In this document: piece after piece, positions 1,331 through 27,414 of the stretch
How positions within the stretch are numbered: position 1 is the stretch's first letter
Layout: every line of letters starts with the position of its first letter
Virus record (IMG/VR): IMGVR_UViG_640753024_000003
Coordinates: 1-27,998 of that record
Strand: one strand, 5' to 3'
Source: a virus
Taxonomy: Duplodnaviria; Heunggongvirae; Uroviricota; Caudoviricetes
Length of the DNA stretch: 27,998 bases
Notes under the pieces: generated by a model
What the model was told of the DNA's origin: nothing
Seen by the model: only the letters and a program-made list of their open reading frames with translations
Databases searched by the model: none
Translations under genes and position numbers: made by a program

Positions 1331-1345
1331 GCTTTTTTATACTAA
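1331..1345. other. attL common core of lambda-type site-specific recombination (host arm to the left, phage P' arm 1346-1418 to the right)
   Basis: Exact 15-bp lambda att core GCTTTTTTATACTAA; right flank gttggcattataaaaaagcattgcttatcaatttgttgcaacgaacaggtcactatcagtcaaaataaaatcattatttg matches the lambda P' arm leading into int. Confidence 0.85.
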
Positions 1346-1418
1346 GTTGGCATTATAAAAAAGCATTGCTTATCAATTTGTTGCAACGAACAGGTCACTA
1401 TCAGTCAAAATAAAATCA

Positions 1419-2489
1419 TTATTTGATTTCAATTTTGTCCCACTCCCTGCCTCTGTCATCACGATACTGTGATGCCATGGTGTCCGACTTATGCCCGAGA
1501 AGATGTTGAGCAAACTTATCGCTTATCTGCTTCTCATAGAGTCTTGCAGACAAACTGCGCAACTCGTGAAAGGTAGGCGGATCCCCTTCGAAGGAAAGAC
1601 CTGATGCTTTTCGTGCGCGCATAAAATACCTTGATACTGTGCCGGATGAAAGCGGTTCGCGACGAGTAGATGCAATTATGGTTTCTCCGCCAAGAATCTC
1701 TTTGCATTTATCAAGTGTTTCCTTCATTGATATTCCGAGAGCATCAACATGCAATGCTGTTGGGATGGCAATTTTTACGCCTGTTTTGCTTTGCTCGACA
1801 TAAAGATATCCATCTACGATATCAGACCACTTCATTTCGCATAAATCACCAACTCGTTGCCCGGTAACAACAGCCAGTTCCATTGCAAGTCTGAGCCAAC
1901 ATGGTGATGATTCTGCTGCTTGATAAATTTTCAGGTATTCGTCAGCCGTAAGTCTTGATCTCCTTACCTCTGATTTTGCTGCGCGAGTGGCAGCGACAGG
2001 GTTTGTTGTTATATGGCCTTCAGCTATTGCCTCTCGGAATGCATCGCTCAGTGTTGATCTGATTAACTTGGCTGACGCCGCCTTGCCCTCGTCTATGTAT
2101 CCATTGAGCATTGCCGCAATTTCTTTTGTGGTGATGTCTTCAAGTGGAGCATCAGGCAGACCCCTCCTTATTGCTTTAATTTTGCTCATGTAATTTATGA
2201 GTGTCTTCTGCTTGATTCCTCTGCTGGCCAGGATTTTTTCGTAGCGATCAAGCCATGAATGTAACGTAACGGAATTATCACTGTTGATTCTCGCTGTCAG
2301 AGGCTTGTGTTTGTGTCCTGAAAATAACTCAATGTTGGTCTGTATGGCTTCAGTGATTGCGATTCGCCTGTCTCTGCCTAATCCAAACTCTTTACCCGTC
2401 CTTGGGTCCCTGTAGCAGTAATATCCATTGTTTCTTATATAAAGGTTAGGGGGTAAATCCCGGCGCTCATGACTTCGCCTTCTTCCCAT
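1419..2489 (-). CDS. int: Lambda-type tyrosine integrase Int
   Basis: 356-aa ORF starting MGRRRSHERRDLPPNLYIRNNGYYCYRDPRTGKEFGLG, recognised as lambda Int; adjacent to attL P' arm. Confidence 0.95.
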   Translation of the reverse strand: MGRRRSHERRDLPPNLYIRNNGYYCYRDPRTGKEFGLGRDRRIAITEAIQTNIELFSGHKHKPLTARINSDNSVTLHSWLDRYEKILASRGIKQKTLINYMSKIKAIRRGLPDAPLEDITTKEIAAMLNGYIDEGKAASAKLIRSTLSDAFREAIAEGHITTNPVAATRAAKSEVRRSRLTADEYLKIYQAAESSPCWLRLAMELAVVTGQRVGDLCEMKWSDIVDGYLYVEQSKTGVKIAIPTALHVDALGISMKETLDKCKEILGGETIIASTRREPLSSGTVSRYFMRARKASGLSFEGDPPTFHELRSLSARLYEKQISDKFAQHLLGHKSDTMASQYRDDRGREWDKIEIK

Positions 2490-2685
2490 TTCTGATCCTC
2501 TTCAAAAGGCTACCTGTTACTGGTCGATTTAAGTCAACCTTTACCGCTGATTCGTGGAACAGATACTCTCTTCCATCCTTAACCGGAGGAGGGAATATCC
2601 TGCACTCGCGTACCCATCGACGAACTGTTTCAAGGCTTCTTGGGCGTCGCTGGCGTGCGTTCCACTCCTGAAGTGTCAAGTACAT
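2467..2685 (-). CDS. xis: Excisionase Xis
   Basis: 72-aa ORF MYLTLQEWNARQRRPRSLETVRRWVRECRIFPPPVKDGREYLF, recognised as lambda Xis; 3' end overlaps int start as in lambda. Confidence 0.95.
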   Translation of the reverse strand: MYLTLQEWNARQRRPRSLETVRRWVRECRIFPPPVKDGREYLFHESAVKVDLNRPVTGSLLKRIRNGKKAKS

Positions 2686-2710
2686 CGCAAAGTCTCCGCA
2701 ATTACACGCA

Positions 2711-2732
2711 AGAAAAAACCGCCATCAGGCGG
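2711..2732 (-). terminator. Candidate intrinsic terminator (minus strand) at the end of the orf55-like gene
   Basis: GC stem ccgcc(2719-2723)/ggcgg(2728-2732) with loop atca; on the minus strand the stem is followed by a T6 run (plus-strand A-run 2713-2718). Confidence 0.4.
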
Positions 2733-2892
2733 CTTGGTGTTCTTTCAGTTCTTCAATTCGAATATTGGTTACGTCTGCATGTGCTATCTGCGCCCACAGC
2801 ATCCAGTGGTCATAGCAGTCGCTGATGTTCTCGGCTTCGATAACTCTGTTGAATGGTTCTCCATTCCATTCACCTGTGACTCGGAAGTGCAT
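2725..2892 (-). CDS. Small hypothetical protein in the position of lambda orf55
   Basis: 55-codon ORF (MHFRVTGEWNGEPFNRVIEAENISDCYDHWMLWAQIAHADVTNIRIEELKEHQAA) hand-translated from the minus strand, 39 nt upstream of xis; below the 60-aa cutoff of the ORF track. Confidence 0.55.
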   Translation of the reverse strand: MHFRVTGEWNGEPFNRVIEAENISDCYDHWMLWAQIAHADVTNIRIEELKEHQAA

Positions 2893-3134
2893 TTATCATC
2901 TCCATAAAACAAAACCCGCCGTAGCGAGTTCAGATAAAAGAAATCCTCGTCAGTGCGAGGATGCTGTTCATTGCTGCTATACACTTTTTTGCTCTCAACG
3001 TAAGCGGTAGCCCATTCTGTTGGGTTGGTGCAGTTGCTTTTAGGAAATGCTATTTACCCCTTAAATTTCGGCTGAAAGAGCTAAAATCCATGCAAAAAAT
3101 TTACGCAATTTTGTGTATTATTGTGCAGTAAGTA

Positions 3135-3737
3135 ATGAGCTATTTTCTGCGCAAAAAATGGATGGTAAATTTGTCCGGGTCAGGAAAAATTTTATGGGCG
3201 CTAAACATGAAAAAAGATTCGTATCCTTATTTGATTTGCATGACAGTTTCAGGGCTGATCTTTATTTTCCTTTTCTTCTGGTGGCGGGCAGATATCTACA
3301 GGGTCACGTTTCTTAATCAGAGTATATCCCACTATTACATTCTGTTTAGCATGGGAATAGCTTTTCTGTTATCTCTGTTTTGGGTTAAGAAGGGGATAGT
3401 AAAACAAAGAGGCTGGAAGAGTCTGTCAGCATACCTTAAGGTTTATGCAGGGATGTGCATATTTGCTGGATTTTTTCTGATTATACCCCTTACGACACTA
3501 ACTTATTTTTTGCCTGGAGAGACATCGTCTTATGTTGCACCGTATCGGTATACTTCCGGTAGTTCAAAAAGTTGTTCTGGAGCTGAGGTGGATGACCCCG
3601 AACTACATGAGAATATTCGCATTTGCTATCCGTATGGCAATTATGAGTACGATAATATTATCTATGTTGAAAAGAAAATTAATATATTAGGTGCGGTAGT
3701 GACATATGCACAGACCGCGCGTGATGATACTGAATGA
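3135..3737 (+). CDS. Hypothetical integral membrane protein (about 3 predicted TM helices plus ~70-aa C-terminal soluble tail); AT-rich moron
   Basis: 200-aa ORF, alternative starts at 3162 and 3207; hydrophobic stretches LICMTVSGLIFIFLFFWW, YYILFSMGIAFLLSLFWV, VYAGMCIFAGFFLIIPLTTLTYFL; markedly AT-rich; opposite orientation to flanking lambda-type genes. Confidence 0.5.
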   Translation: MSYFLRKKWMVNLSGSGKILWALNMKKDSYPYLICMTVSGLIFIFLFFWWRADIYRVTFLNQSISHYYILFSMGIAFLLSLFWVKKGIVKQRGWKSLSAYLKVYAGMCIFAGFFLIIPLTTLTYFLPGETSSYVAPYRYTSGSSKSCSGAEVDDPELHENIRICYPYGNYEYDNIIYVEKKINILGAVVTYAQTARDDTE

Positions 3738-3772
3738 TATAGTATATAGCGGGCAAGTTTTAGTTAATTTAT

Positions 3773-3794
3773 CGAGGTAATATAATTTACCTCG
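3773..3794 (+). terminator. Hairpin downstream of the membrane-protein ORF (possible terminator)
   Basis: Perfect 8-bp inverted repeat cgaggtaa/ttacctcg with 6-nt loop, followed by a T-containing tract (actcgtttgttct). Confidence 0.35.
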
Positions 3795-3947
3795 ACTCGT
3801 TTGTTCTGGTATTAATATTTCGCTTTACGACCGATTTTTATCTGATGATATCATGCGGTTTTCATATACTGACTTACTGTCTTTTCTCCGTTAGCGATTT
3901 TCTCCTGCTCAGCGATGATTTTATCTTTGGCTTCTAGTTAATTTCGC

Positions 3948-4169
3948 TCACTTCGAACCTCTCTGTTTACTGATAAGCTCCAGATCCTCCTGGCAACTTG
4001 CACAAGTCCGACAACCCTGAACGACCAGGCGTCTTCGTTCATCTATCGGATCGCCACACTCACAACAATGAGTGGCAGATATAGCCTGGTGGTTCAGGCG
4101 GCGCATTTTTATTGCTGTGTTGCGCTGTAATTCTTCAATTTCTGATGCTGAATCAATGATGTCTGCCAT
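3948..4169 (-). CDS. TraR/DksA-family C4 zinc-finger protein (lambda orf73-like, exo-xis region)
   Basis: 73-aa ORF with CxxC-x17-CxxC zinc-finger motif (CCECGDPIDERRRLVVQGCRTCASC) typical of the TraR/DksA family. Confidence 0.75.
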   Translation of the reverse strand: MADIIDSASEIEELQRNTAIKMRRLNHQAISATHCCECGDPIDERRRLVVQGCRTCASCQEDLELISKQRGSK

Positions 4170-4267
4170 CTTCCATTAATCCCTGAATTGTTGGTTAATA
4201 CGCTTGAGGGTGAATGCGAATAATAAAAAAGGAGCCTGTAGCTCCCTGATGATTTTGCTTTTCATGT

Positions 4268-4579
4268 TCATCGTTCCTTAAAGACGCCGTTTAACATGCC
4301 GATTGCCAGGCTTAAATGAGTCGGTGTGAATCCCATCAGCGTTACCGTTTCGCGGTGCTTCTTCAGTACGCTACGGCAAATGTCATCGACGTTTTTATCC
4401 GGAAACTGCTGTCTGGCTTTTTTGATTTCAGAATTAGCCTGACGGGCAATGCTGCGAAGGGCGTTTTCCTGCTGAGGTGTCATTGAACAAGTCCCATGTC
4501 GGCAAGCATAAGCACACAGAATATGAAGCCCGCTGCCAGAAAAATGCATTCCGTGGTTGTCATACCTGGTCTCTCTCAT
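4268..4579 (-). CDS. Exo-xis region protein in the position of lambda orf61 (here a 103-codon open frame)
   Basis: ORF overlapping the 3' end of the orf63-like gene by 20 nt as in lambda; internal Met at codon 33 (MTPQQENALRSIARQ...) is an alternative start. Confidence 0.55.
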   Translation of the reverse strand: MRETRYDNHGMHFSGSGLHILCAYACRHGTCSMTPQQENALRSIARQANSEIKKARQQFPDKNVDDICRSVLKKHRETVTLMGFTPTHLSLAIGMLNGVFKER

Positions 4580-4751
4580 CTGCTTCTGCTTTCGCCACCA
4601 TCATTTCCAGCTTTTGTGAAAGGGATGCGGCTAACGTATGAAATTCTTCGTCTGTTTCTACTGGTATTGGCACAAACCTGACTCCAATTTGAGCGAGGCT
4701 ATGTGCCATCTCGATACTCGTTCTTAACTCAACGGGAGATGCTTTGTGCAT
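4560..4751 (-). CDS. Exo-xis region protein (lambda orf63-like)
   Basis: 63-aa ORF in the canonical position between orf60a-like and orf61-like genes. Confidence 0.65.
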   Translation of the reverse strand: MHKASPVELRTSIEMAHSLAQIGVRFVPIPVETDEEFHTLAASLSQKLEMMVAKAEADERDQV

Positions 4752-4912
4752 ACAGCTCCCCGTTTATTATTTATCTCCTCAGCCAGCCGCTGTGCTTTCA
4801 GGGGATTTCGGATAACAGAAAGGCCGGGAAATACCCAGCCTCGCTTCGTAACGGAGTAGACGAAAGTGATCGTGCCTACCCGGATATTATCGTGAGGATG
4901 CTTCATCGCCAT
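4724..4912 (-). CDS. Exo-xis region protein (lambda orf60a-like)
   Basis: 62-aa ORF immediately downstream of exo on the minus strand, overlapping exo start by 10 nt. Confidence 0.65.
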
Positions 4913-5583
4913 TGCTCCCCAAATACAAAACCAATTTCAGCCAGTGCCACGTCCATTTTTTCGATGAACTCCGGCACCATCTCGTCAAAATTCGCCATGT
5001 ACTTTTCATTCCGCTCAATCACGACATAATGCAGGCCTTCACGCTTCATACGCGGGTCATAGTTGGCAAAGTACCAGGCATCTTTTCGCGTCACCCACAT
5101 GCTGTACTGCACCTGGGCCATGTAAGCCGATTTTATGGCCTCGAAACCACCGAGCCGGAACTTCATGAAATCCCGGGAGGTAAACGGGCATTTCAGTTCA
5201 AGGCCGTTGCCGTCACTGCATAAACCATCGGGAGAGCAGGCGGTGCGCATACTTTCGTCGCGATAGATGATCGGGGATTCAGTAACATTCACGCCGGAAG
5301 TGAATTCAAACAGGGTTCTGGCGTCGTTCTCGTACTGTTTTCCCCAGGCCAGCGCCTTAGCATTAACTTCCGGAGCCACACCGGTGCAAACCTCAGCCAG
5401 CAGGGTGTGGAAGTAGGACATTTTCATGTCAGGCCACTTCTTTCCTGAGCGGGGCTTTGCTATCACGTTGTGAACTTCTGAAGCGGTGATGACGCCGAGC
5501 CGTAATTTGTGCCATGCATCATCCCCCTGTTCGACAGCTCTCACGTCGATCCCGGTACGCTGCAGGATAATGTCCGGTGTCAT
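4903..5583 (-). CDS. exo: Lambda exonuclease (Red alpha)
   Basis: 226-aa [43 protein letters not shown]..., recognised as lambda Exo; ATGA overlap with bet stop. Confidence 0.95.
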
Positions 5584-6365
5584 GCTGCCACCTTCTGCTC
5601 AGTGGCTTTCTGTTTCAGGAATCCAAGAGCTTTCACTGCTTCGGCCTGTGTCAGTTCTGACGATGCGCGAATGTCGCGGCGAAATATCTGGGAACAGAGC
5701 GGCAATAAGTCGTCATCCCATGTTTTATCCAGGGCGATCAGCAGAGTGTTAATCTCCTGCATGGTTTCATCGTTAACCGGAGTGATGTCGCGTTCTGGCT
5801 GACGTTCTGCAGTGTATGCGGTATTTTCGACAATGCGCTCGGCTTCATCCTTGTCATAGATACCAGCAAATCCGAAGGCCAGACGGGCACACTGAATCAT
5901 GGCTTTATGCCGTAACATCCGTTTGGGATGCGACTGCCACGGCCCCGTGATTTCTCTGCCTTCGCGAGTTTTGAATGGTTCGCGGCGGCATTCATCCATC
6001 CATTCGGTAACGCAGATCGGATGATTACGGTCCTTGCGGTAAATCCGGCATGTACAGGATTCATTGTCCTGCTCAAAGTCCATGCCATCAAACTGCTGGT
6101 TTTCATTGATGATGCGGGACCAGCCATCAACGCCCACCACCGGAACGATGCCGTTCTGCTTATCAGGGAAGGCGTAAATTTCTTTCGTCCACGGATTAAG
6201 GCCGTACTGGTTGGCGACGATCAACAATGCGATGAACTGCGCATCGCTGGCATCACCTTTAAATGCCGTCTGGCGAAGAGTGGTGATCAGTTCCTGTGGG
6301 TCGACAGAATCCATGCCGACACGTTCAGCCAGCTTCCCTGCCAGCGTTGCGAGTGCTGTACTCAT
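5580..6365 (-). CDS. bet: Single-strand annealing protein Beta (Red beta)
   Basis: 261-aa [43 protein letters not shown]..., recognised as lambda Bet. Confidence 0.95.
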
Positions 6366-11848: not shown

Positions 11849-13375
11849 ATGAAAAAAGCCATAGCATATATGCGATTTTCATCACCAGGTCAGATGTCTG
11901 GCGACTCATTGAACCGACAGAGAAGACTTATTGCTGAATGGTTAAAGGTAAATAGTAATTATTATCTTGATACCATAACATATGAAGATTTAGGATTAAG
12001 TGCATTCAAAGGAAAGCATGCACAATCAGGAGCTTTTTCGGAATTTTTAGATGCTATAGAGCATGGTTATATATTGCCAGGAACTACATTGTTAGTTGAA
12101 AGTTTGGACAGACTTTCAAGAGAAAAAGTCGGTGAAGCGATTGAGCGTCTGAAATTGATTTTGAATCACGGTATTGATGTTATAACTCTTTGCGATAATA
12201 CAGTCTATAACATTGACTCTTTGAATGATCCATATTCATTAATAAAAGCCATACTTATAGCACAAAGGGCAAATGAAGAAAGCGAGATAAAGTCAAGTCG
12301 GGTTAAATTATCATGGAAGAAAAAACGGCAGGATGCACTGGAGTCAGGCACGATTATGACGGCGTCTTGTCCGAGATGGCTCTCATTGGATGACAAAAGA
12401 ACAGCTTTTATTCCAGACCCCGACAGGGTGAAAACGATTGAGCTAATTTTTAAACTCAGGATGGAAAGGCGATCATTGAATGCAATAGCCAAGTATTTAA
12501 ATGATCATGCTGTAAAAAATTTCTCAGGCAAAGAAAGTGCATGAGGGCCTTCTGTAATTGAAAAATTATTAGCGAATAAAGCTCTGATAGGTATATGCGT
12601 ACCTTCATATCGTGCAAGAGGTAAAGGAATAAGTGAAATCGCTGGCTATTATCCCAGAGTCATATCAGATGATTTGTTTTACGCTGTGCAGGAAATTCGG
12701 TTGGCACCTTTTGGTATTAGCAATAGTAGCAAAAATCCTATGTTGATAAATCTACTTCGAACAGTTATGAAGTGCGAGGCTTGTGGTAATACCATGATTG
12801 TTCATGCGGTATCTGGAAGTTTGCATGGCTATTATGTTTGTCCGATGAGAAGACTGCATCGATGTGACAGGCCATCAATAAAGAGAGATTTGGTTGATTA
12901 TAATATCATTAATGAGTTGCTTTTTAATTGTAGTAAAATCCAACCAGTTGAAAACAAGAAAGATGCTAATGAAACTTTAGAGTTGAAAATTATTGAGCTC
13001 CAGATGAAAATTAATAATTTAATTGCTGCATTATCTGTTGCGCCTGAAGTTACCGCTATAGCAGAAAAAATCAGAGTATTAGATAAGGAATTACGAAGGG
13101 CTTCGGTATCATTAAAAACTTTGAAGAGTAAAGCGGTGAGTTCACTTGGTGATTTTCATGCTATTGACTTAACCAGTAAAAATGGGCGAGAGCTATGTCG
13201 TACACTTGCCTATAAAACATTCGAAAAAATCATAATCAATACAGATAATAAAACCTGTGATATCTATTTTATGAATGGCATTGTTTTTAAACACTATCCT
13301 TTAATGAAAACAATATCCGCCCAGCAGGCGATAAGTACTCTCAAATATATGGTTGATGGTGAGGTTTATTTTTGA
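11849..13375 (+). pseudogene. ybcK: Large serine recombinase (YbcK-like) interrupted by a single in-frame TGA at 12542-12544
   Basis: Two same-frame ORFs (231 aa and 233 aa) separated only by one TGA; N-terminal resolvase/invertase catalytic domain (YMRFSSPGQ...SLNRQ); read-through sequence ...GKESA*GPSVIEKLLANKALIG suggests TGG(Trp) to TGA. Confidence 0.8.
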
Positions 13376-13639: not shown

Positions 13640-13647
13640 GAGCATGG
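13640..13647. repeat. Target-site duplication (left copy) GAGCATGG
   Basis: 8-bp sequence identical to 16090-16097, directly abutting the IS terminal inverted repeat. Confidence 0.85.
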
Positions 13648-13684
13648 GTAAGCGTGCAGCAAGAACCGTATTGACGGGGATGTG

Positions 13685-15223
13685 TTATTCAGTCGGCAGT
13701 GCTACGCGCCAGGGGAGCAGTTCGCCGACCCGGTTTATCGGCCAGTCGGCTATGACGTCAAGGACATAGCGGAGGTAGCTTTCTGGCTCCACTCCGTTCA
13801 GTTTGCACGTCCCGATCAGGCTGTACAGCAGCGCTCCCCGCTCTCCTCCATGATCCGAACCGAAGAACAGGTAGTTTTTGCGGCCCAGACTGACCATCCG
13901 CAACGCATTTTCAGCGATGTTATTGTCCGCCTCAGCCCAGCCATCATCTGCATAGTACGTCAGCGCCGGCCACTGGTTCAGGGCGTATGCGAACGCTTTC
14001 GCCAGTTCTGAGTGTCGCGACAGGGTTTTCATCTTTTCACGCAACCAGCTTTCCAGGGATTTCAACAGCGGTTTCGTTTTTCGCTGACGTTCAGCAAGCC
14101 GCTGCTCTGCCGGCATTCCCCTTATATCCGCCTCTATGGCGTACAACTGACCGATCTGCTCCAGGGCTTCTTCCGTCAGTGCTGACGGGATGCGGACGTG
14201 CACATCGTGGATCTTTCGGCGGGCATGAGCCCAGCAGGCAGCTTCCGTTATCCCACCATTGCGATACAGCTCGTTGAACCCGGCGTACGCATCCGCTTGC
14301 AGCACACCGCTGAAGCAGGCAAGATGAGTCTGCGGATGGATGCCTTTTCTGTCCGGGCTGTAAGCGAACCACACTGCAGGTGCCAACGCTGACCCGGCAT
14401 TGCGGTCATCACGAACATACGCCCACAACCGCCCGGTCTTCGTCTTCTTATTACCCGGCAGCAGTACCTGGACCGGGGTATCATCGGCATGGAGTTTGCC
14501 GTCAGTCATGACATAGCCATGAAGCGCCTCTTCCAGCGGAGACAGCAGCCGGCAGCATGCATCCACCCAGCCCGACAGCAGTGAACGGCTCAGCTCCACA
14601 CCTTGCCGGCCGTATATTTCTGACTGGCGATACAGCGGGGTGTGCTCTGCATACTTCGAGGTCAGCACGCGGGCCAGCAGCCCCGGTCCGGCGATACCCC
14701 GCTCGATGGGCCGCGAAGGTGCAGGTGCCTGCACGATGGCATCGCACTGAGTACAGGCATGTTTTTCCCGTACCGTCCGGATAACCCGGAAGGCACTACG
14801 CATCAACTCCAGCTGTTCGGCGGTATCCTCGCCCAGATAGCTCAGTGAACCGCCGCAGTTCGGGCAGCACGGCGCCGCAGGCAACAGTCGCTTTTCGTCA
14901 CGGGGTAGTGATTCAGGGAACGGCTTACGGGTGCGGGTCTGACGCAACGGACGCTGTACAGCCGGGTCATACACCCTACCAGTCAGCGTATCGCTCTCTT
15001 TCTGAAGCCGGTTCAGATCGGCTTCCATTTGTGCGATACGGCGGGAGACTTTTTCGGAACGACTGCCGAAGTTCATCCGGCGGAGTTTATCCAGCTGCGC
15101 CTGCAGATGGTCTATTTCGCGCTCCCAGTTGCTCAGCTTTTCCTGCAGGGCGTGGATCAGCGCTTCCTGTTCGGCCAGGCGCTGTTTCAGCAGGAAGATG
15201 TCGTCAGAAGAGATGTCGTTCAT
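13685..15223 (-). CDS. tnpC: IS66-family transposase TnpC
   Basis: 512-aa ORF with N-terminal coiled coil/leucine zipper, CxxC...CxxC zinc finger (CCPNCGG...CTQCD) and DDE-type core. Confidence 0.9.
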
Positions 15224-15272
15224 AAGCCCGTATTTTACCGGGCTTATTCTGTGACAACCAGGATAAAGAGAT

Positions 15273-15620
15273 TTACAGCATGGTCAGGGAGGTCAGCAAC
15301 CGCTTGGGCTGTCGCCAGTCGATACCTTCCAGCAGCATCGCCAGCTGCGCCTGCGTAAGGAACACTTTGCCATCACGGGCTGACGGCCAGGCGAAGCGCC
15401 CACGCTCCAGCCGTTTGGTCAGGAGGCACAGTCCGTCACCGGTGGACCACAGCAGTTTAACCTGACTGCCGCTGCGGCCCCGGAAAATGAAAACATGGCC
15501 GGACATGGGATCGTCTTTCAGCGCCGTTTGTACTTTCGCAGCCAGGCCGTTGAAGCCATTTCTCATATCGGTGATACCGGCAACCAGCCAAATTTTGGTC
15601 CCGGAAGGTAACGGGATCAT
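15273..15620 (-). CDS. tnpB: IS66 accessory protein TnpB (Orf2)
   Basis: 115-aa [33 protein letters not shown]... in the middle position of the IS66 operon, overlapping tnpA stop. Confidence 0.85.
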
Positions 15621-16018
15621 CGCTTCAGTTCCTGTATCAGCAGAGTCAGGAGCTTTTCGCTGACATTGCCATTGAAGCGGAGCGTCCCGTGCCGGAACGT
15701 TACCTCACAGCTGATACTGAGGGTTTCCGGGTCCTCTGCGAGCGATTCTGGCTGTTCGGCAGCTGCATCGAGAGTCACAGGAAGTAGCTGGGGGCTCTCT
15801 GAAGAAGGTAATAGCAGCTTTCCCTCGCGCCATTGTTGTCGCCATTTGAACAACAGATTGGCGTTAATGCCATTTTCAAGAGCAAGTTTTGAGATGGATA
15901 TCCCGGGTTCACAGGAGGCAGCAACGAGCTGCTGTTTAAATTCGGGAGGATAATTAGGGCAGCCTTTTCGCCTGCCGGGAGTCACATTTTTCTGCATATC
16001 TGACACTTTGGTTCCCAC
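15617..16018 (-). CDS. tnpA: IS66 accessory protein TnpA (Orf1, HTH)
   Basis: 133-aa ORF in the first position of the IS66 operon; ATGA overlap with tnpB. Confidence 0.8.
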   Translation of the reverse strand: MGTKVSDMQKNVTPGRRKGCPNYPPEFKQQLVAASCEPGISISKLALENGINANLLFKWRQQWREGKLLLPSSESPQLLPVTLDAAAEQPESLAEDPETLSISCEVTFRHGTLRFNGNVSEKLLTLLIQELKR

Positions 16019-16089
16019 TACTTATTTGGTGGACACCACTTTGTCTAATTTGTCAGATTCTGACCAGACGGTTCAGGCTGTACGCTTAC

Positions 16090-16097
16090 GAGCATGG
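16090..16097. repeat. Target-site duplication (right copy) GAGCATGG
   Basis: Identical to 13640-13647. Confidence 0.85.
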
Positions 16098-16278
16098 TGA
16101 GGCTGGTCACTTCACTTCCATCGAGCAAGAATATCCCCAGAGACTCAACAGAGCGCGAGCAATCCTCGCCCGAGAAACGGCACATGTAAAACTTCAGCCG
16201 TGGCAGGATGATAAGTGGAGTCAAGTATTGCCGCATTTACCTCAGAATCTGTTTCAATAAAGGCGCTAGTTAGTAAGG

Positions 16279-16304
16279 CTTCCGTCATTCTGCGATGACG
16301 GAAG
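16279..16304. other. Perfect 10-bp inverted repeat hairpin (cttccgtcat-N6-atgacggaag)
   Basis: Lies 18 nt after the stop of the IS-interrupted small ORF and 130 nt upstream of the HNH-motif gene; no U-tract. Confidence 0.4.
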
Positions 16305-16434
16305 TGCGGGCTGCGTACGGGAGAGCAATTGCATGAATAATATAAATATTCCGCTCACTCCATATAGCGATTTCTGATACAAACTTATCTATTGTGGTAA
16401 AATTATAGAAACAAACTTATAGCGTACTAACCAT

Positions 16435-17217
16435 ATGGACAATATTAATAAACACGGGCTCTCAAGAAGAATACCTGAGACAATAAAACGTCAGATAAGG
16501 CAAAGGTGCGGCTTTGGCTGTGTAATTTGTGGATTTGGATTTTATGATTATGAGCATTTTAAACCTGACTTCGTTGATGCCAAAATACATGATCCGAATG
16601 GAATGACACTTCTTTGCTCCCAATGCAATCAAAAAAGAGCTCGTGGTAGACTTTCAGCACAGACAGTGGAAATAGCTGACAGAAATCCCAAGTGCTTACA
16701 GGCTGGTTTTGCAAATGAAATGTTTGATTTTCATAATGAGCCTATAACAGTAAAATTTGCAGGAGTGACGTTTCATAACTGTCAAAATTTGATTGTAGTC
16801 AACGAACAACCCATTCTTTCTGTGAAACCTTCACCCATACCACATGGACCGATGCTTTTATCAGGAATTTTCTGTAATTCTATTGGTAAGGAGACTTTAC
16901 TGATAGATGAAAATGAATGGAAAGCTAAATCAGACAATTGGGATGTGGAGTGTACCGGCCCGCGTATAACAATACGACGTGGGCCAGGAGAGTTTGCCCT
17001 CGTTCTAAAAATGGAACCTCCAACAGGATTGATTGTTGAGCGTCTTGATATGTTGTATGAAGGGGTCAGGATGAAAGGAGATAAAGATCTGCTGGAAGTT
17101 TCGATTAATGGAGGTCCCTTGCACAGATGGCAATCATGCTCAATGTCAAATTGCCATACAGGGCTTGCGATTCAGGGCGGTATTAGAGCTGCTAATGATC
17201 CTTTGTATTGCGCCTAA
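16435..17217 (+). CDS. Hypothetical protein with N-terminal HNH/His-Me-finger nuclease-like zinc-finger motif and ~190-aa uncharacterised C-terminal domain
   Basis: 260-aa ORF; residues ~25-66 CGFGCVICGFGFYDYEHFKPDFVDAKIHDPNGMTLLCSQCNQ give Cys pairs flanking conserved His and Asn as in HNH nucleases; AT-rich codon usage; occupies the variable cargo slot between the recombinase and ybcN. Confidence 0.55.
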   Translation: MDNINKHGLSRRIPETIKRQIRQRCGFGCVICGFGFYDYEHFKPDFVDAKIHDPNGMTLLCSQCNQKRARGRLSAQTVEIADRNPKCLQAGFANEMFDFHNEPITVKFAGVTFHNCQNLIVVNEQPILSVKPSPIPHGPMLLSGIFCNSIGKETLLIDENEWKAKSDNWDVECTGPRITIRRGPGEFALVLKMEPPTGLIVERLDMLYEGVRMKGDKDLLEVSINGGPLHRWQSCSMSNCHTGLAIQGGIRAANDPLYCA

Positions 17218-17257
17218 ATCCACTAAATTGATTTTCAACAATCAACTTGCCATAATT

Positions 17258-19471: not shown

Positions 19472-20554
19472 TTAGAACTGGTAAACCATACCTACAGCAA
19501 CGATATCATCGGTAGCAACGCCAGATGCTTTCGTGAAATCGCTCTTATCAATCAGGTTGATTTTGTAGTCAACAAAAGTGGACATATTTTTGTTGAAGTA
19601 ATAGGTTGCACCTACATCAACATATTCAACCAGGTCCTGATCACCCCAAACACCCAAGTCTTTTCCTTTAGAATGCAGGTAAGCAACGGATGGACGCAGG
19701 CCGAAGTCGAACTGATATTGTGCAACAGCTTCGAAGTTTTGTGCTTTGTTGGCAATATGGTTATTACCAAAAACAGTCATGTTCTGGGTTTCAGAATAGG
19801 TGGTGGCCAGATAGATGTTGTTCGCATCATATTTCAGACCAGCTGCCCATACTTCAGCATTTTGACCAGAAGCATTCAGACCGTTGTTACCGTAGATAAC
19901 CTGATTATTAGTGCGATCAGATTTAGCATAGGTTGCACCCACGCCGAATCCTTCATACTCATAAGTAGTTGAGAAACCGAAACCATCGCCATTAGCTTCA
20001 GTTACTTCATTTCGGTCATTTTTGCCCTGATACTGAGCTGCAAAGTTCAGGCCATCAACCAGACCAAAGAAGTCGTTGTTACGATAAGTTGCAACACCTG
20101 TGGTGCGACCAGTCATGAATACATCTGTTTGGGTCCAGGTATCGCCACCGAATTCTGGCAGAACGTCAGTCCACGCACCGATGTCGTATGCTACACCGTA
20201 GTTACGGCCGTAATCGATTGAGCCGTAGTCACCGAATTTCAGGCCTGCAAATGCAAGACGGGTTTTGTCTTTGGAGGAACCTTGAGATTCAGCGCGGTTG
20301 CCTTTGAATTCATATTCCCACTGACCGAAACCAGTCAGTTGATCGTTGATTTGGGTTTCACCTTTGAAGCCAAGACGGGCATAAGTAGTATCACCATCAT
20401 CTGCATCATTAGAGGAGAAGTAGTGCTTAGCATTAACTTTCCCGTACAGATCCAGCTTGTTACTGTCTTTATTATAAATTTCAGCTGCCTGAGCAGACAT
20501 CGCCATCAGTACTGATGCAGCTACAGCAGAAATTGCCACTGTTAATTTTTTCAT
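19472..20554 (-). CDS. nmpC: Prophage-encoded general porin of the OmpC/OmpF/NmpC family (intact)
   Basis: 360-aa ORF with signal peptide ([23 protein letters not shown]) and C-terminal VYQF beta-barrel signal; antisense between Q and the lysis genes as in DLP12. Confidence 0.9.
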
Positions 20555-24453: not shown

Positions 24454-24999
24454 ATGGAAGTCAACAAAAAGCAGCTGGCTGACATTTTCGGTGCGAGTAT
24501 CCGTACCATTCAGAACTGGCAGGAACAGGGAATGCCCGTTCTGCGAGGCGGTGGCAAGGGTAATGAGGTGCTTTATGACTCTGCCGCCGTCATAAAATGG
24601 TATGCCGAAAGGGATGCTGAAATTGAGAACGAAAAGCTGCGCCGGGAGGTTGAAGAACTGCGGCAGGCCAGCGAGGCAGATCTCCAGCCAGGGACTATTG
24701 AGTACGAACGCCATCGACTTACGCGTGCGCAGGCCGACGCACAGGAACTGAAGAATGCCAGAGACTCCGCTGAAGTGGTGGAAACCGCATTCTGTACTTT
24801 CGTGTTGTCGCGGATCGCAGGTGAAATTGCCAGTATTCTCGACGGGATCCCCCTGTCGGTGCAGCGGCGTTTTCCGGAACTGGAAAACCGACATGTTGAT
24901 TTCCTGAAACGGGATATCATCAAAGCCATGAACAAAGCAGCCGCGCTGGATGAACTGATACCGGGGTTGCTGAGTGAATATATCGAACAGTCAGGTTAA
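24454..24999 (+). CDS. nu1: Terminase small subunit Nu1
   Basis: 181-aa ORF MEVNKKQLADIFGASIRTIQNWQEQGMPVLRGGGKGNEVLYDSAAVIKWYAERDAEIENEKLRREVEELR..., recognised as lambda Nu1. Confidence 0.95.
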   Translation: MEVNKKQLADIFGASIRTIQNWQEQGMPVLRGGGKGNEVLYDSAAVIKWYAERDAEIENEKLRREVEELRQASEADLQPGTIEYERHRLTRAQADAQELKNARDSAEVVETAFCTFVLSRIAGEIASILDGIPLSVQRRFPELENRHVDFLKRDIIKAMNKAAALDELIPGLLSEYIEQSG

Positions 25000-26563
25000 C
25001 AGGCTGCGGCATTTTGTCCGCGCCGGGCTTCGCTCACTGTTCAGGCCGGAGCCACAGACCGCCGTTGAATGGGCGGATGCTAATTACTATCTCCCGAAAG
25101 AATCCGCATACCAGGAAGGGCGCTGGGAAACACTGCCCTTTCAGCGGGCCATCATGAATGCGATGGGCAGCGACTACATCCGCGAGGTGAATGTGGTGAA
25201 GTCTGCCCGTGTTGGTTATTCCAAAATGCTGTTGGGTGTTTATGCCTACTTCATAGAGCATAAGCAGCGCAACACACTTATCTGGTTGCCGACGGATGGT
25301 GATGCCGAGAACTTTATGAAAACCCACGTTGAGCCGACCATCCGCGATATTCCGTTGCTGCTGGCGCTGGCTCCGTGGTATGGCAAAAAGCACCGGGATA
25401 ACACGCTCACCATGAAGCGTTTTTCCAATGGTCGTGGCTTCTGGTGCCTGGGCGGTAAAGCGGCAAAAAACTACCGTGAAAAGTCGGTGGATGTGGCGGG
25501 TTATGATGAACTTGCTGCCTTTGATGAGGATATTGAACAGGAAGGCTCTCCGACGTTCCTTGGCGACAAACGTATTGAAGGCTCGGTCTGGCCAAAGTCC
25601 ATCCGTGGCTCCACCCCCAAAGTGAGAGGCACCTGCCAGATTGAGCGTGCAGCCAGTGAATCCCCGCATTTTATGCGTTTTCATGTTGCCTGTCCGCACT
25701 GCGGGGAGGAGCAGTACCTTAAATTTGGCGATAAAGAGACGTCGTTTGGCCTCAAATGGACGCCGGATGATCCCTCCAGCGTGTTTTATCTCTGCGAACA
25801 TAATGCCTGCGTCATCCGCCAGCAGGAACTGGACTTCACTGATGCCCGTTATATCTGCGAAAAGACCGGGATCTGGACCCGTGATGGCATTCTCTGGTTT
25901 TCGTCATCCGGTGAAGAGATTGAGCCGCCGGACAGCGTGACCTTTCACATCTGGACGGCGTACAGCCCGTTCACCACCTGGGTGCAGATTGTCAAAGACT
26001 GGATGAAAACGAAAGGGGATACGGGAAAACGTAAAACCTTCGTAAACACCACGCTCGGTGAGACGTGGGAGGCGAAAATTGGCGAACGTCCGGATGCTGA
26101 AGTGATGGCAGAGCGGAAAGAGCATTATTCAGCGCCCGTTCCTGACCGTGTGGCTTACCTGACCGCCGGTATCGACTCCCAGCTGGATCGCTACGAAATG
26201 CGCGTATGGGGATGGGGGCCGGGTGAGGAAAGCTGGCTGATTGACCGGCAGATTATTATGGGCCGCCACGACGATGAACAGACGCTGCTGCGTGTGGATG
26301 AGGCCATCAATAAAACCTATACCCGCCGGAATGGTGCAGAAATGTCGGTATCCCGTATCTGCTGGGATACTGGCGGGATTGATCCGACCATTGTGTATGA
26401 ACGCTCGAAAAAACATGGGCTGTTCCGGGTGATCCCCATTAAAGGGGCATCCGTCTACGGTAAGCCTGTGGCCAGCATGCCACGTAAGCGAAACAAAAAC
26501 GGGGTTTACCTTACCGAAATCGGTACGGATATCCAACAGCGTATGGAAATATCATTCACCTGA
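24974..26563 (+). pseudogene. A: Terminase large subunit A, 3'-truncated (first ~519 codons lambda-like, then 10 junction-derived codons and a stop)
   Basis: ORF MNISNSQVNRLRHFVRAGLRSLFRPEPQTAVEWADANYYLPKESAYQEG... matches lambda gpA up to ...VYLTEIGTD (about 26531), then diverges ([10 protein letters not shown]); lambda gpA is 641 aa. Confidence 0.85.
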
Positions 26564-27414
26564 AAGGGATGACAGCCGTTGGCGAAGGTGAGTTACTCAT
26601 CGGCTGGAGTGGTACAAGCGGTGCTCATGCTCCGGCATTTATTCGTTCACGACGGGATACGACCGACGCAAACTGGTCGCCGTGGGCGCAGCTTTACACC
26701 TCGGCTCATCCTCCTGCAGAGTTTTATCCAGTCGGTGCACCAATCCCGTGGCCATCAGATACCGTTCCGTCTGGTTATGCCCTGATGCAGGGGCAGACTT
26801 TTGACAAATCTGCTTACCCGAAACTTGCAGTTGCTTATCCGTCAGGCGTGATCCCTGATATGTGTGGCTGGACGATTAAGGGCAAGCCCGCCAGTGGTCG
26901 TGCCGTATTGTCTCAGGAACAGGACGGCATAAAATCGCATACCCACAGCGCCAGCGCATCCAGTACGGATTTGGGGACGAAAACCACATCGTCGTTTGAT
27001 TACGGCACTAAATCCACGAATAACACTGGTGCGCATACCCATAGTTTAAGTGGCAGCACGAATGCAGCTGGTAATCACAGCCATAGAGATGGCCGTCGAT
27101 TTAACCCCAGTGTTTTTAAAGATACTTATCAATATGGTTATACAAGCTCAGGTCAAAATACCTGGGGTGTACAAGGCTCAGTAGGTATGTCTACGGGGGC
27201 GTTAGCTAATACCAGTACAGATGGTAACCATAGCCACTCACTGTCCGGCACAGCAGCATCTGCAGGTGCACACGCACATACTGTCGGTATTGGTGCACAC
27301 ACGCACTCCGTTGCGATTGGTTCACATGGACACACCATCACCGTTAACGCTGCTGGTAACGCGGAAAACACCGTCAAAAACATCGCATTTAACTATATTG
27401 TGAGGCTTGCATAA
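26532..27414 (+). pseudogene. stf: 3' fragment of side tail fibre gene (C-terminal receptor-binding region with His-x-His repeats), fused to truncated A
   Basis: Open frame from the junction; C-terminus ...[31 protein letters not shown] and region [10 protein letters not shown]...PSGY...[56 protein letters not shown] match lambda Stf C-terminal region; N-terminal parts of stf absent. Confidence 0.8.

Follow-up and report, generated by a model that had tools for sequence, protein, structure and literature searches.

A mobile single-gene cassette encoding a 176-residue polytopic membrane protein in the exo-xis region of 434-type lambdoid prophages, a candidate superinfection-exclusion factor

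The Replacement Segment and Its Gene

The DNA analyzed here (27,998 nucleotides, called the window below) is the IMG/VR virus record IMGVR_UViG_640753024_000003, a lambdoid prophage in the exo-xis region of which a real, selected and mobile single-gene accessory cassette encodes a 176-amino-acid polytopic membrane protein. The cassette lies between a minus-strand homolog of orf55 (2725-2892, 96% identity to lambda orf55) and the minus-strand TraR/DksA-like orf73 (3948-4169), the two neighbors named in the initial annotation of this region, in which AT-rich DNA had also been described as taking the place of lambda ea8.5 and ea22. Blastn alignments with lambda support both statements and fix the borders of the segment. 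Window 1331-2962, which spans attP, int, xis and orf55, corresponds to lambda 27724-29355 (98.7% identity), and window 3936-5655, from orf73 through exo, to lambda 30380-32100 (97.9% identity). Between them, 973 bp of non-lambda DNA with a GC content of 38% (2963-3935) substitute for the 1,024 bp of lambda 29356-30379, which contain ea8.5 and ea22 minus the first 16 nt of ea22. With flanks ~98% identical to lambda, this is strictly a swap and not a pure insertion. The GC content is 0.34-0.39 over 3000-3900, as against 0.45-0.55 in the flanks; that of the gene is 0.39 and that of the entire window 0.47. The features of the segment are the following:

2963-3935, no strand: replacement segment, with lambda ea8.5/ea22 swapped out (blastn against lambda, composition)
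3040-3206, plus strand: upstream control region of the cassette, with homology to P2-like copies from ~3040-3070 (blastn, alignment)
3097-3128, plus strand: three direct TTGTGCA-type repeats (TTTACGCA, TTGTGTA and TTGTGCA) with ~10-bp spacing, upstream of the -10 element
3135-3206, plus strand: in-frame 24-codon extension behind the 200-amino-acid annotation (homolog alignment)
3163-3171, plus strand: putative extended -10 element TGgTAAATT, 35 nt upstream of the ATG at 3207
3207-3737, plus strand: coding sequence of 176 amino acids, predicted three-helix inner-membrane protein with a C-terminal beta-barrel domain
3772-3795, plus strand: hairpin with a 9-bp stem and a 6-nt loop, followed by CTCGTTTGTT (terminator scan, fold)
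3851-3937, minus strand: 3' remnant of an Ead/Ea22-family gene, ending in …LEAKDKIIAEQEKIANGEKTVSQYMKTA and a stop codon (translation, blastn)

A single plus-strand gene of 176-200 amino acids had been proposed for this segment. The single gene was confirmed, but not the longer product. The plus-strand open reading frame (ORF) at 3135-3737 comprises 200 codons, and most of the aligned homologs begin at the methionine corresponding to its residue 25, with the conserved N-terminus MKKxSYPYL; on the basis of this alignment, the true start is the ATG at 3207 and the product has 176 amino acids rather than 200. The 24-codon extension at 3135-3206 is probably untranslated, since it overlaps the promoter region, is missing from most of the aligned homologs and is interrupted in the Escherichia coli P2-like copy by an in-frame stop 5 codons upstream of the ATG. 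The annotated starts differ among the records: RefSeq calls the 176-amino-acid form in one genome, while 188 amino acids from a TTG are given in phage 434, 200 in RefSeq and mEp332, and 112 elsewhere. The 112-amino-acid "truncated" form, present in more than 1,000 contigs, was considered as a possible pseudogene and rejected: the full 176-codon ORF is intact there, and the short form is a gene-calling artifact.

The length of the ORF and the selection acting on it were both assessed. When the 973-bp segment was shuffled 2,000 times with its dinucleotide composition preserved, the longest ORF averaged 66.5 +/- 18 codons, and at least 176 codons were reached in only two of the shuffles. The pairwise ratios of non-synonymous to synonymous substitution rates (dN/dS) between the window gene and its homologs range from 0.08 to 0.21.

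A -10-like hexamer occurs at the same alignment position in all eight of the upstream regions compared, and this conservation points to the extended -10 element at 3163-3171 as the putative promoter of the cassette. The consensus promoter scan passed over this element, and the -35 matches at only 3 of 6 positions. The TTGTGCA-type repeats located upstream are kept in the P2-like copies of E. coli (locus L023, 4700-4745) and Salmonella (loci L005/L006, ~5890-5930); their ~10-bp spacing suggests a regulator-binding site, and they may be a candidate site for a regulator recognizing direct repeats. Ogr-type TGT-N12-ACA sites were sought by eye in these repeats, and none fits. The annotators of phage 434 marked 3111-3124 as a match to the CII consensus. 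Downstream of the gene, the hairpin mentioned in the initial annotation was recovered at 3772-3795. No other structure appears in the centroid fold, but the z-score obtained for the full stretch of 93 nt is only -1.47 and the U-tract is weak. The hairpin may plausibly serve the cassette as an intrinsic terminator, albeit a weak one.

Architecture of the Predicted Protein

Three hydrophobic segments detected by Kyte-Doolittle analysis agree with three long helices in the AlphaFold2 model, which corroborates the earlier count of about three transmembrane (TM) helices. In the 176-amino-acid protein, these are:

TM1, residues 8-26
TM2, residues 42-60
TM3, residues 79-102

The tyrosine- and serine-rich C-terminal tail described previously is replaced in the model by a folded and highly conserved domain of ~70 residues (103-168) with a five-strand beta fold resembling an OB barrel, in which Cys123 and Cys140 are invariant. 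The predicted local distance difference test score (pLDDT) is 84 for the whole protein and 88 for the C-terminal domain modeled alone. The mean frequency of the top residue is 0.75 in the C-terminal domain, ~0.5 in the TM helices and 0.48 in the predicted cytoplasmic loop.

Loop 2 contains six lysine and arginine residues and no acidic ones, and the C-terminal domain five basic and nine acidic residues. Based on the positive-inside rule, the two invariant cysteines and the position of the modeled loop-1 strand, which immediately precedes TM2, the protein is predicted to have its N-terminus and loop 2 in the cytoplasm, and loop 1 and its C-terminal domain in the periplasm. Only ~7 and ~18 residues (~25 in total) would then be located in the cytoplasm, and the periplasmic barrel is probably disulfide-bonded. 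Since conservation is highest in the C-terminal domain, the conserved, functional surface is predicted to face the periplasm.

Occurrence in Lambdoid Prophages

The cassette is not peculiar to this prophage: it is the phage 434 allele, and a segment at least 95% identical is present in 914 of the 5,426 complete E. coli genomes (17%). The 434 gene CPT_434_36 (OL657226), annotated as a "putative membrane protein," is the same gene, in a segment 98.4% identical to that of the window, and the segments of 2B8 and mEp332 are 98.6-99.6% identical. Window 3040-3940 as a whole shows 98.4-100% nucleotide identity with the corresponding DNA of 434, mEp332, 2B8, Sakai and 55989, and is located between orf55 and orf73 in all of them. 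The carriers include E. coli 55989 (WP_000120064.1), O104:H4 and O157:H7 Sakai (ECs_0804, prophage Sp3). The genes of 434, mEp332, 2B8, Sakai and 55989 are therefore the same gene as that of the window, differing only in the annotated start, and their records give no function.

The 63 IMG/VR copies that are at least 96% identical all adjoin orf73 and exo of lambdoid phages. The intact-ORF filter was passed by 71 of 79 copies, and four more were flagged only because the start lies upstream of the aligned residue; about 75 of the 78 complete IMG/VR copies are intact. The gene is also kept in degraded elements: Sakai Sp3, in which int and bet have become pseudogenes, has an intact copy, and another survives in a prophage remnant near dsdC/torI. 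In the prophage of the window (region 24974-27414), the ORF for the terminase large subunit extends to 26563, and a tail-fiber ORF with a Collar domain begins at 26569; this abutment indicates that the head genes and most of the tail genes seem to have been deleted and that the prophage is defective, and the membrane-protein gene is nevertheless intact.

Several observations concern the elements carrying these copies. In EDL933, island OI-36 appears to correspond to Sakai Sp3. The 434 region was partly sequenced decades ago (M60848), and the b-region of 434 (OL657226, 23512-24614) contains genes for the type III effectors NleC and an NleH1-like fragment, the same effectors being present in the O157:H7 island OI-36. 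A 3.6-kb contig binned as "Candidatus Nanosynbacter" (JARKOR010000073.1) carries a 99% identical copy of the gene along with lambdoid orf73 and exo; this is almost certainly an E. coli prophage contamination of a metagenome-assembled genome.

Occurrence in P2-Like Prophages and Enterobacterial Chromosomes

All the phage-borne relatives showing 47-79% identity are located in P2-like prophages, between the portal gene gpQ and the replication gene gpA. This placement was found in all 16 IMG/VR copies in that identity range and at the loci L005-L007 and L016-L023 of E. coli, Salmonella and Klebsiella michiganensis. The relatives are solitary accessory genes on the strand opposite to gpA, and their GC content is 0.39-0.44 inside loci of 0.52-0.53. 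The gpQ-gpA locus carries old and tin in P2 and is an experimentally validated anti-phage hotspot (PMC9122126). System no. 4 of this hotspot (Table S5B: "3 TM," 470 occurrences, no Pfam domain; Rousset et al., 2022, PMC9122126) is a member of the same family: its protein shows 51% identity with the window protein over 168 residues (E = 7e-56). Like the window protein, it has three helices and a C-terminal domain, is encoded by a solitary gene and occupies an accessory hotspot; unlike the window gene, it occurs in P2-like myoviruses, between gpQ and gpA. System 4 is listed in that study but is missing from the table of tested systems (PMC9122126).

The homology between the two phage settings extends beyond the coding sequence. 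Window 3070-3827 aligns with E. coli P2-like locus L023 4672-5427 at 76.6% nucleotide identity (blastn, 761 bp). The E. coli P2-like copy is then followed by a frameshifted Ea22-family fragment (L023 5477-5812, minus strand), homologous to the remnant at the right end of the window segment: window 3894-3937 matches L023 5521-5564 at 77% (blastn), and the Ea22-like neighbor in L023 gave a Pfam Ead_Ea22 match. The fact that the cassette and a homologous Ea22 piece are shared suggests that the cassette moved between the lambdoid and P2-like families, apparently with a lambdoid flank attached.

Chromosomal relatives that are 36-48% identical were found in Enterobacter, Klebsiella, Pseudescherichia and Citrobacter. 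In the Enterobacter cloacae complex, the site lies between GGDEF-EAL/LysR and HAMP-GGDEF/AI-2E transporter genes. At the Enterobacter loci L008-L010, L034-L037 and L041-L042, the homolog occupies a syntenic position between diguanylate-cyclase/phosphodiesterase genes and an AI-2E transporter gene. In several species, its start is separated by 16 nt from a preceding LysR-type regulator gene of the same strand, so that the two may be co-transcribed.

Relationships of the Family

The family is small, orphan and under purifying selection. A word-indexed search returned 74 clusters, all from Enterobacteriaceae, and an HMMER profile scan of 1.84 billion representatives only 61, all of ~165-190 amino acids and with the same layout. 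A 3,074-residue repeat protein (P0122) also returned by the profile search was discarded as spurious, as it matches only via ten copies of a short cysteine-containing motif. Remote homology searches, which had been named earlier as a check on the nature of the protein, matched nothing characterized; what they gave was phrog_1416 in PHROGs (E = 1.2e-50 over the C-terminal half), a family with no annotated function. Pfam yielded only a sub-threshold DUF6057, both for the window protein and across 20 members, and NCBIfam no match for the window protein; the best E-value in a sequence-profile search of the PDB was 0.46, and Foldseek found nothing in BFVD at E <= 1e-3. The possibility of an NfeD-like protein, in which TM helices are followed by a C-terminal OB fold (PF01957), was dropped: neither a Pfam NfeD match nor a structural match nor an SPFH-family neighbor was found.

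Status as a Moron and Possible Function

The initial annotation had regarded the cassette as independently acquired, in an orientation opposite to that of its surroundings, and the alignments bear this out: the DNA is non-lambda and runs against the direction of the pL transcript, its composition is shifted, and the same cassette occurs in P2-like prophages. As judged from these alignments, it is a moron of the exo-xis region in 434-type lambdoid prophages. Foreign DNA of deviating base composition lies between lambda-like flanks, and as regards signals of its own, the conserved extended -10 and the hairpin are present, but the -35 is poor, the U-tract weak and the z-score -1.47.

Envelope-level superinfection exclusion is the function that we favor, tentatively and at somewhat less than even chances. 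The extended -10 promoter of the cassette would drive transcription against the pL direction, so that the protein could be made in a repressed prophage. It would act as a stand-alone exclusion factor at the cell envelope, its conserved periplasmic surface disturbing the step at which an incoming phage delivers its DNA. Possible targets are the tail-tip, tape-measure or ejection-protein conduit, or an inner-membrane component used by this conduit; the incoming genome would fail to cross the inner membrane, and the cell would not be killed. The features pointing in this direction are the occurrence in two accessory/defense hotspots, the solitary gene, the conserved surface predicted to face the periplasm, the lack of a cytoplasmic sensor and the retention in dead prophages. 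The position of the P2-like relatives in the gpQ-gpA hotspot supports a defense role by location, and the small size of the predicted cytoplasmic parts, which leave no room for an intracellular sensor, favors action at the entry stage over abortive infection.

Known proteins provide partial parallels. P2 old and tin share with the P2-like relatives the gpQ-gpA locus, the stand-alone organization and the strand opposite to gpA, but their products are soluble: Old is a nuclease-ATPase, and Tin acts after entry. HK97 gp15, a moron-encoded inner-membrane superinfection-exclusion protein of the YebO family, blocks genome entry and leaves the outer-membrane receptor untouched, and its homologs occur only in Enterobacteriaceae, mostly on the chromosome (PMC3594210). 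Like the window protein, it is a small inner-membrane protein encoded by a lambdoid moron with its own expression signals (putative in the present case), but its gene lies in the tail operon, and no relationship in sequence was detected, PHROGs giving only phrog_1416 for the window protein and the two sequences not having been compared directly. P22 SieA is a polytopic inner-membrane prophage protein that blocks the passage of DNA across the inner membrane (PMC10883804). It is similar to the window protein in size (164 vs. 176 amino acids), location and polytopic nature, but differs from it in its unrelated sequence and, by eye, in having no cysteine-paired C-terminal domain.

A more specific proposal, to which we give slightly less credence than to exclusion as such, is that the family forms a structurally distinct new exclusion class, in which a three-helix anchor would present a disulfide-bonded OB-like barrel in the periplasm and the barrel would intercept the machinery by which incoming phages deliver their genomes. 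The gene would have been recruited from a chromosomal envelope gene of Enterobacteriaceae, and the cassette would have moved with a piece of ea22 between the lambdoid exo-xis region and the P2 gpQ-gpA locus, the best-known accessory hotspots among enterobacterial temperate phages.

Several points weigh against exclusion. The promoter is proposed on the strength of conservation alone, H-NS frequently silences such AT-rich DNA, and the periplasmic placement of the C-terminal domain is a prediction. The window protein had no match at E <= 10 among the 5,027 defense-protein models of PADLOC-DB v2. PHROGs, the exclusion content of which was not checked, gave only phrog_1416 at E <= 0.1 and no exclusion-annotated family, and P22 SieA showed no similarity in either sequence (BLASTP E = 12) or profile (hhalign probability 0.2%). 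Literature searches turned up neither a study of the gene nor RNA data on it. The P2 hotspot also houses non-defense cargo such as partition systems and the cytolethal distending toxin (PMC9122126), and in E. coli the family member often adjoins such a partition system. Lastly, at least six Enterobacter species, as well as Klebsiella, have distant homologs of native GC content at a syntenic chromosomal site, and this native chromosomal clade fits a cellular envelope role equally well.

Such a cellular role is at the core of the most serious competing explanation, that of a lysogenic-conversion function at the envelope unrelated to phage, the phage copies having been borrowed from the chromosomal Enterobacteriaceae gene. 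The barrel might bind an envelope component, neutralize a toxin acting in the periplasm or on the membrane (for instance a colicin, a type VI secretion effector or a toxin of contact-dependent inhibition), or aid stress tolerance or colonization. The syntenic, native-GC orthologs of the Enterobacter cloacae complex and those of Klebsiella, Pseudescherichia and Citrobacter speak for this explanation, as do the non-defense cargo of the P2 hotspot and the virulence cargo of the host elements (NleC and NleH in 434 and in O157 OI-36). We nevertheless consider it somewhat less likely than exclusion: repeated placement at the P2 tin/old site and at lambdoid accessory sites over three genera is more typical of inter-phage competition, the 20 members searched in Pfam matched no colicin or other immunity family or indeed any family, and HK97 gp15 shows that chromosomal homologs are compatible with an exclusion role. 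Abortive infection, in which a membrane-damaging effector would depolarize or permeabilize the membrane upon infection in the manner of RexB or the 2TM/S-2TMbeta effectors, was one of the two functions suggested in the initial annotation, and appears to be the less likely of them. Membrane proteins of the hotspot are often read as suicide effectors (PMC9122126), and one very weak BFVD match to the S-2TMbeta effector domain was obtained (probability 0.21), but the gene always stands alone and lacks a conserved sensor partner, only ~25 residues are predicted to be in the cytoplasm, conservation centers on the predicted periplasmic domain rather than on the helices, the gene is stable in 914 genomes with no antitoxin-like neighbor, and none of the PADLOC models matched; taken together, these data make such an effector improbable.

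A role in the life cycle of the phage itself seems even more improbable. The gene might be expressed from a CII-type promoter (TTGT-N6-TTGT, 3111-3124) during the establishment of lysogeny, or its transcript might interfere in antisense with the pL exo-xis transcript. The CII-consensus match marked by the annotators of 434, the conservation of the repeats and the antisense orientation of the transcript with respect to pL read-through are in line with these possibilities. The motif is short, however, and several chance occurrences per phage genome are to be expected by our estimate; the repeats lie at ~-67 to -54 from the conserved -10 and not over the -35 as at pRE and pI, and they are retained in the P2-like copies, while to our knowledge P2-like phages have no CII. 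In addition, the protein itself, and not merely the transcript, is under strong purifying selection, and the gene persists in dead prophages. The notion that the ORF arose by chance in AT-rich junk DNA might be entertained because it is annotated as hypothetical only and gene callers disagree on its start (200, 188, 176 or 112 amino acids). It carries next to no weight and is for practical purposes refuted by the conservation data, given the two shuffles out of 2,000 that reach 176 codons, the dN/dS of ~0.1, the 61 family representatives with a common architecture and the confident fold prediction.

If the protein does act in exclusion, the classic phage 434 carries an unrecognized exclusion gene, and a new family would be added to the few envelope-level exclusion factors; it would explain part of the phage resistance of many clinical strains and be of relevance to phage therapy and typing. 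If it does not, the product is an ordinary conserved hypothetical membrane protein. Although the gene is common, being present in 17% of the complete E. coli genomes (O157:H7 and O104:H4 among them) and in the textbook phage 434, and although its family ranks fourth in frequency among the cargo of the P2 defense hotspot, it lacks a name and a domain assignment. The cassette also illustrates cleanly how one accessory gene can travel from the hotspot of a temperate phage to that of an unrelated one. The sequence was already known, and the gene is probably best filed as a prophage moron, with exclusion factor as its presumptive role.

Borders of the Segment and Other Features of the Prophage

The junctions of the replacement segment carry three further features:

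2943-2962, minus strand: hairpin of the tL4 terminator type, for the leftward pL transcript (t-L4 annotated at the corresponding place in 434 record M60848; terminator scan)
2961-3131, plus strand: 56-amino-acid ORF, recorded for 434 and mEp332 as a coding sequence, either hypothetical or for a "putative membrane protein"
3934-3951, minus strand: 5' stump of a lambda-type ea22 (GTG-SEIN, then stop; five codons VSEIN), overlapping the orf73 stop codon

The tL4 hairpin is the final lambda-homologous element before the left junction. The 56-amino-acid ORF is probably a spurious product of annotation, since it begins inside this hairpin, spans the recombination junction, crosses the upstream region of the cassette and matches no family. 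At the right junction, the remnant at 3851-3937 belongs, as judged from its sequence, to an Ead/Ea22 allele other than that of the lambda-type stump beside it. Farther to the right, the orf61 homolog (4268-4579, minus strand) is an open ORF of 103 codons (71 amino acids in RefSeq), as compared with 61 amino acids in lambda. The last nine residues of lambda orf61 match the window in a different reading frame, and the lambda reference therefore appears to be frameshifted relative to the window allele.

The first 7.9 kb of the window are 99.96% identical to E. coli 55989, and the remainder differs. An IS66-family element at ~13645-17227 (transposase 13685-15223, TnpB 15273-15620, helix-turn-helix ORF 15617-16018) is missing from the otherwise ~99% identical 55989 prophage. 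Next to the element, the ybcK-type serine-recombinase gene is broken up into one ORF at 11849-12544 and another at 12674-13375. The prophage has a second moron for a membrane protein, a full-length gene for a porin of the OmpC/NmpC type (19472-20554, minus strand), which is flanked by the Q antiterminator region and the lysis genes and is oriented opposite to them. Downstream of ren, the near-identical prophage of 55989 carries emrE as well.

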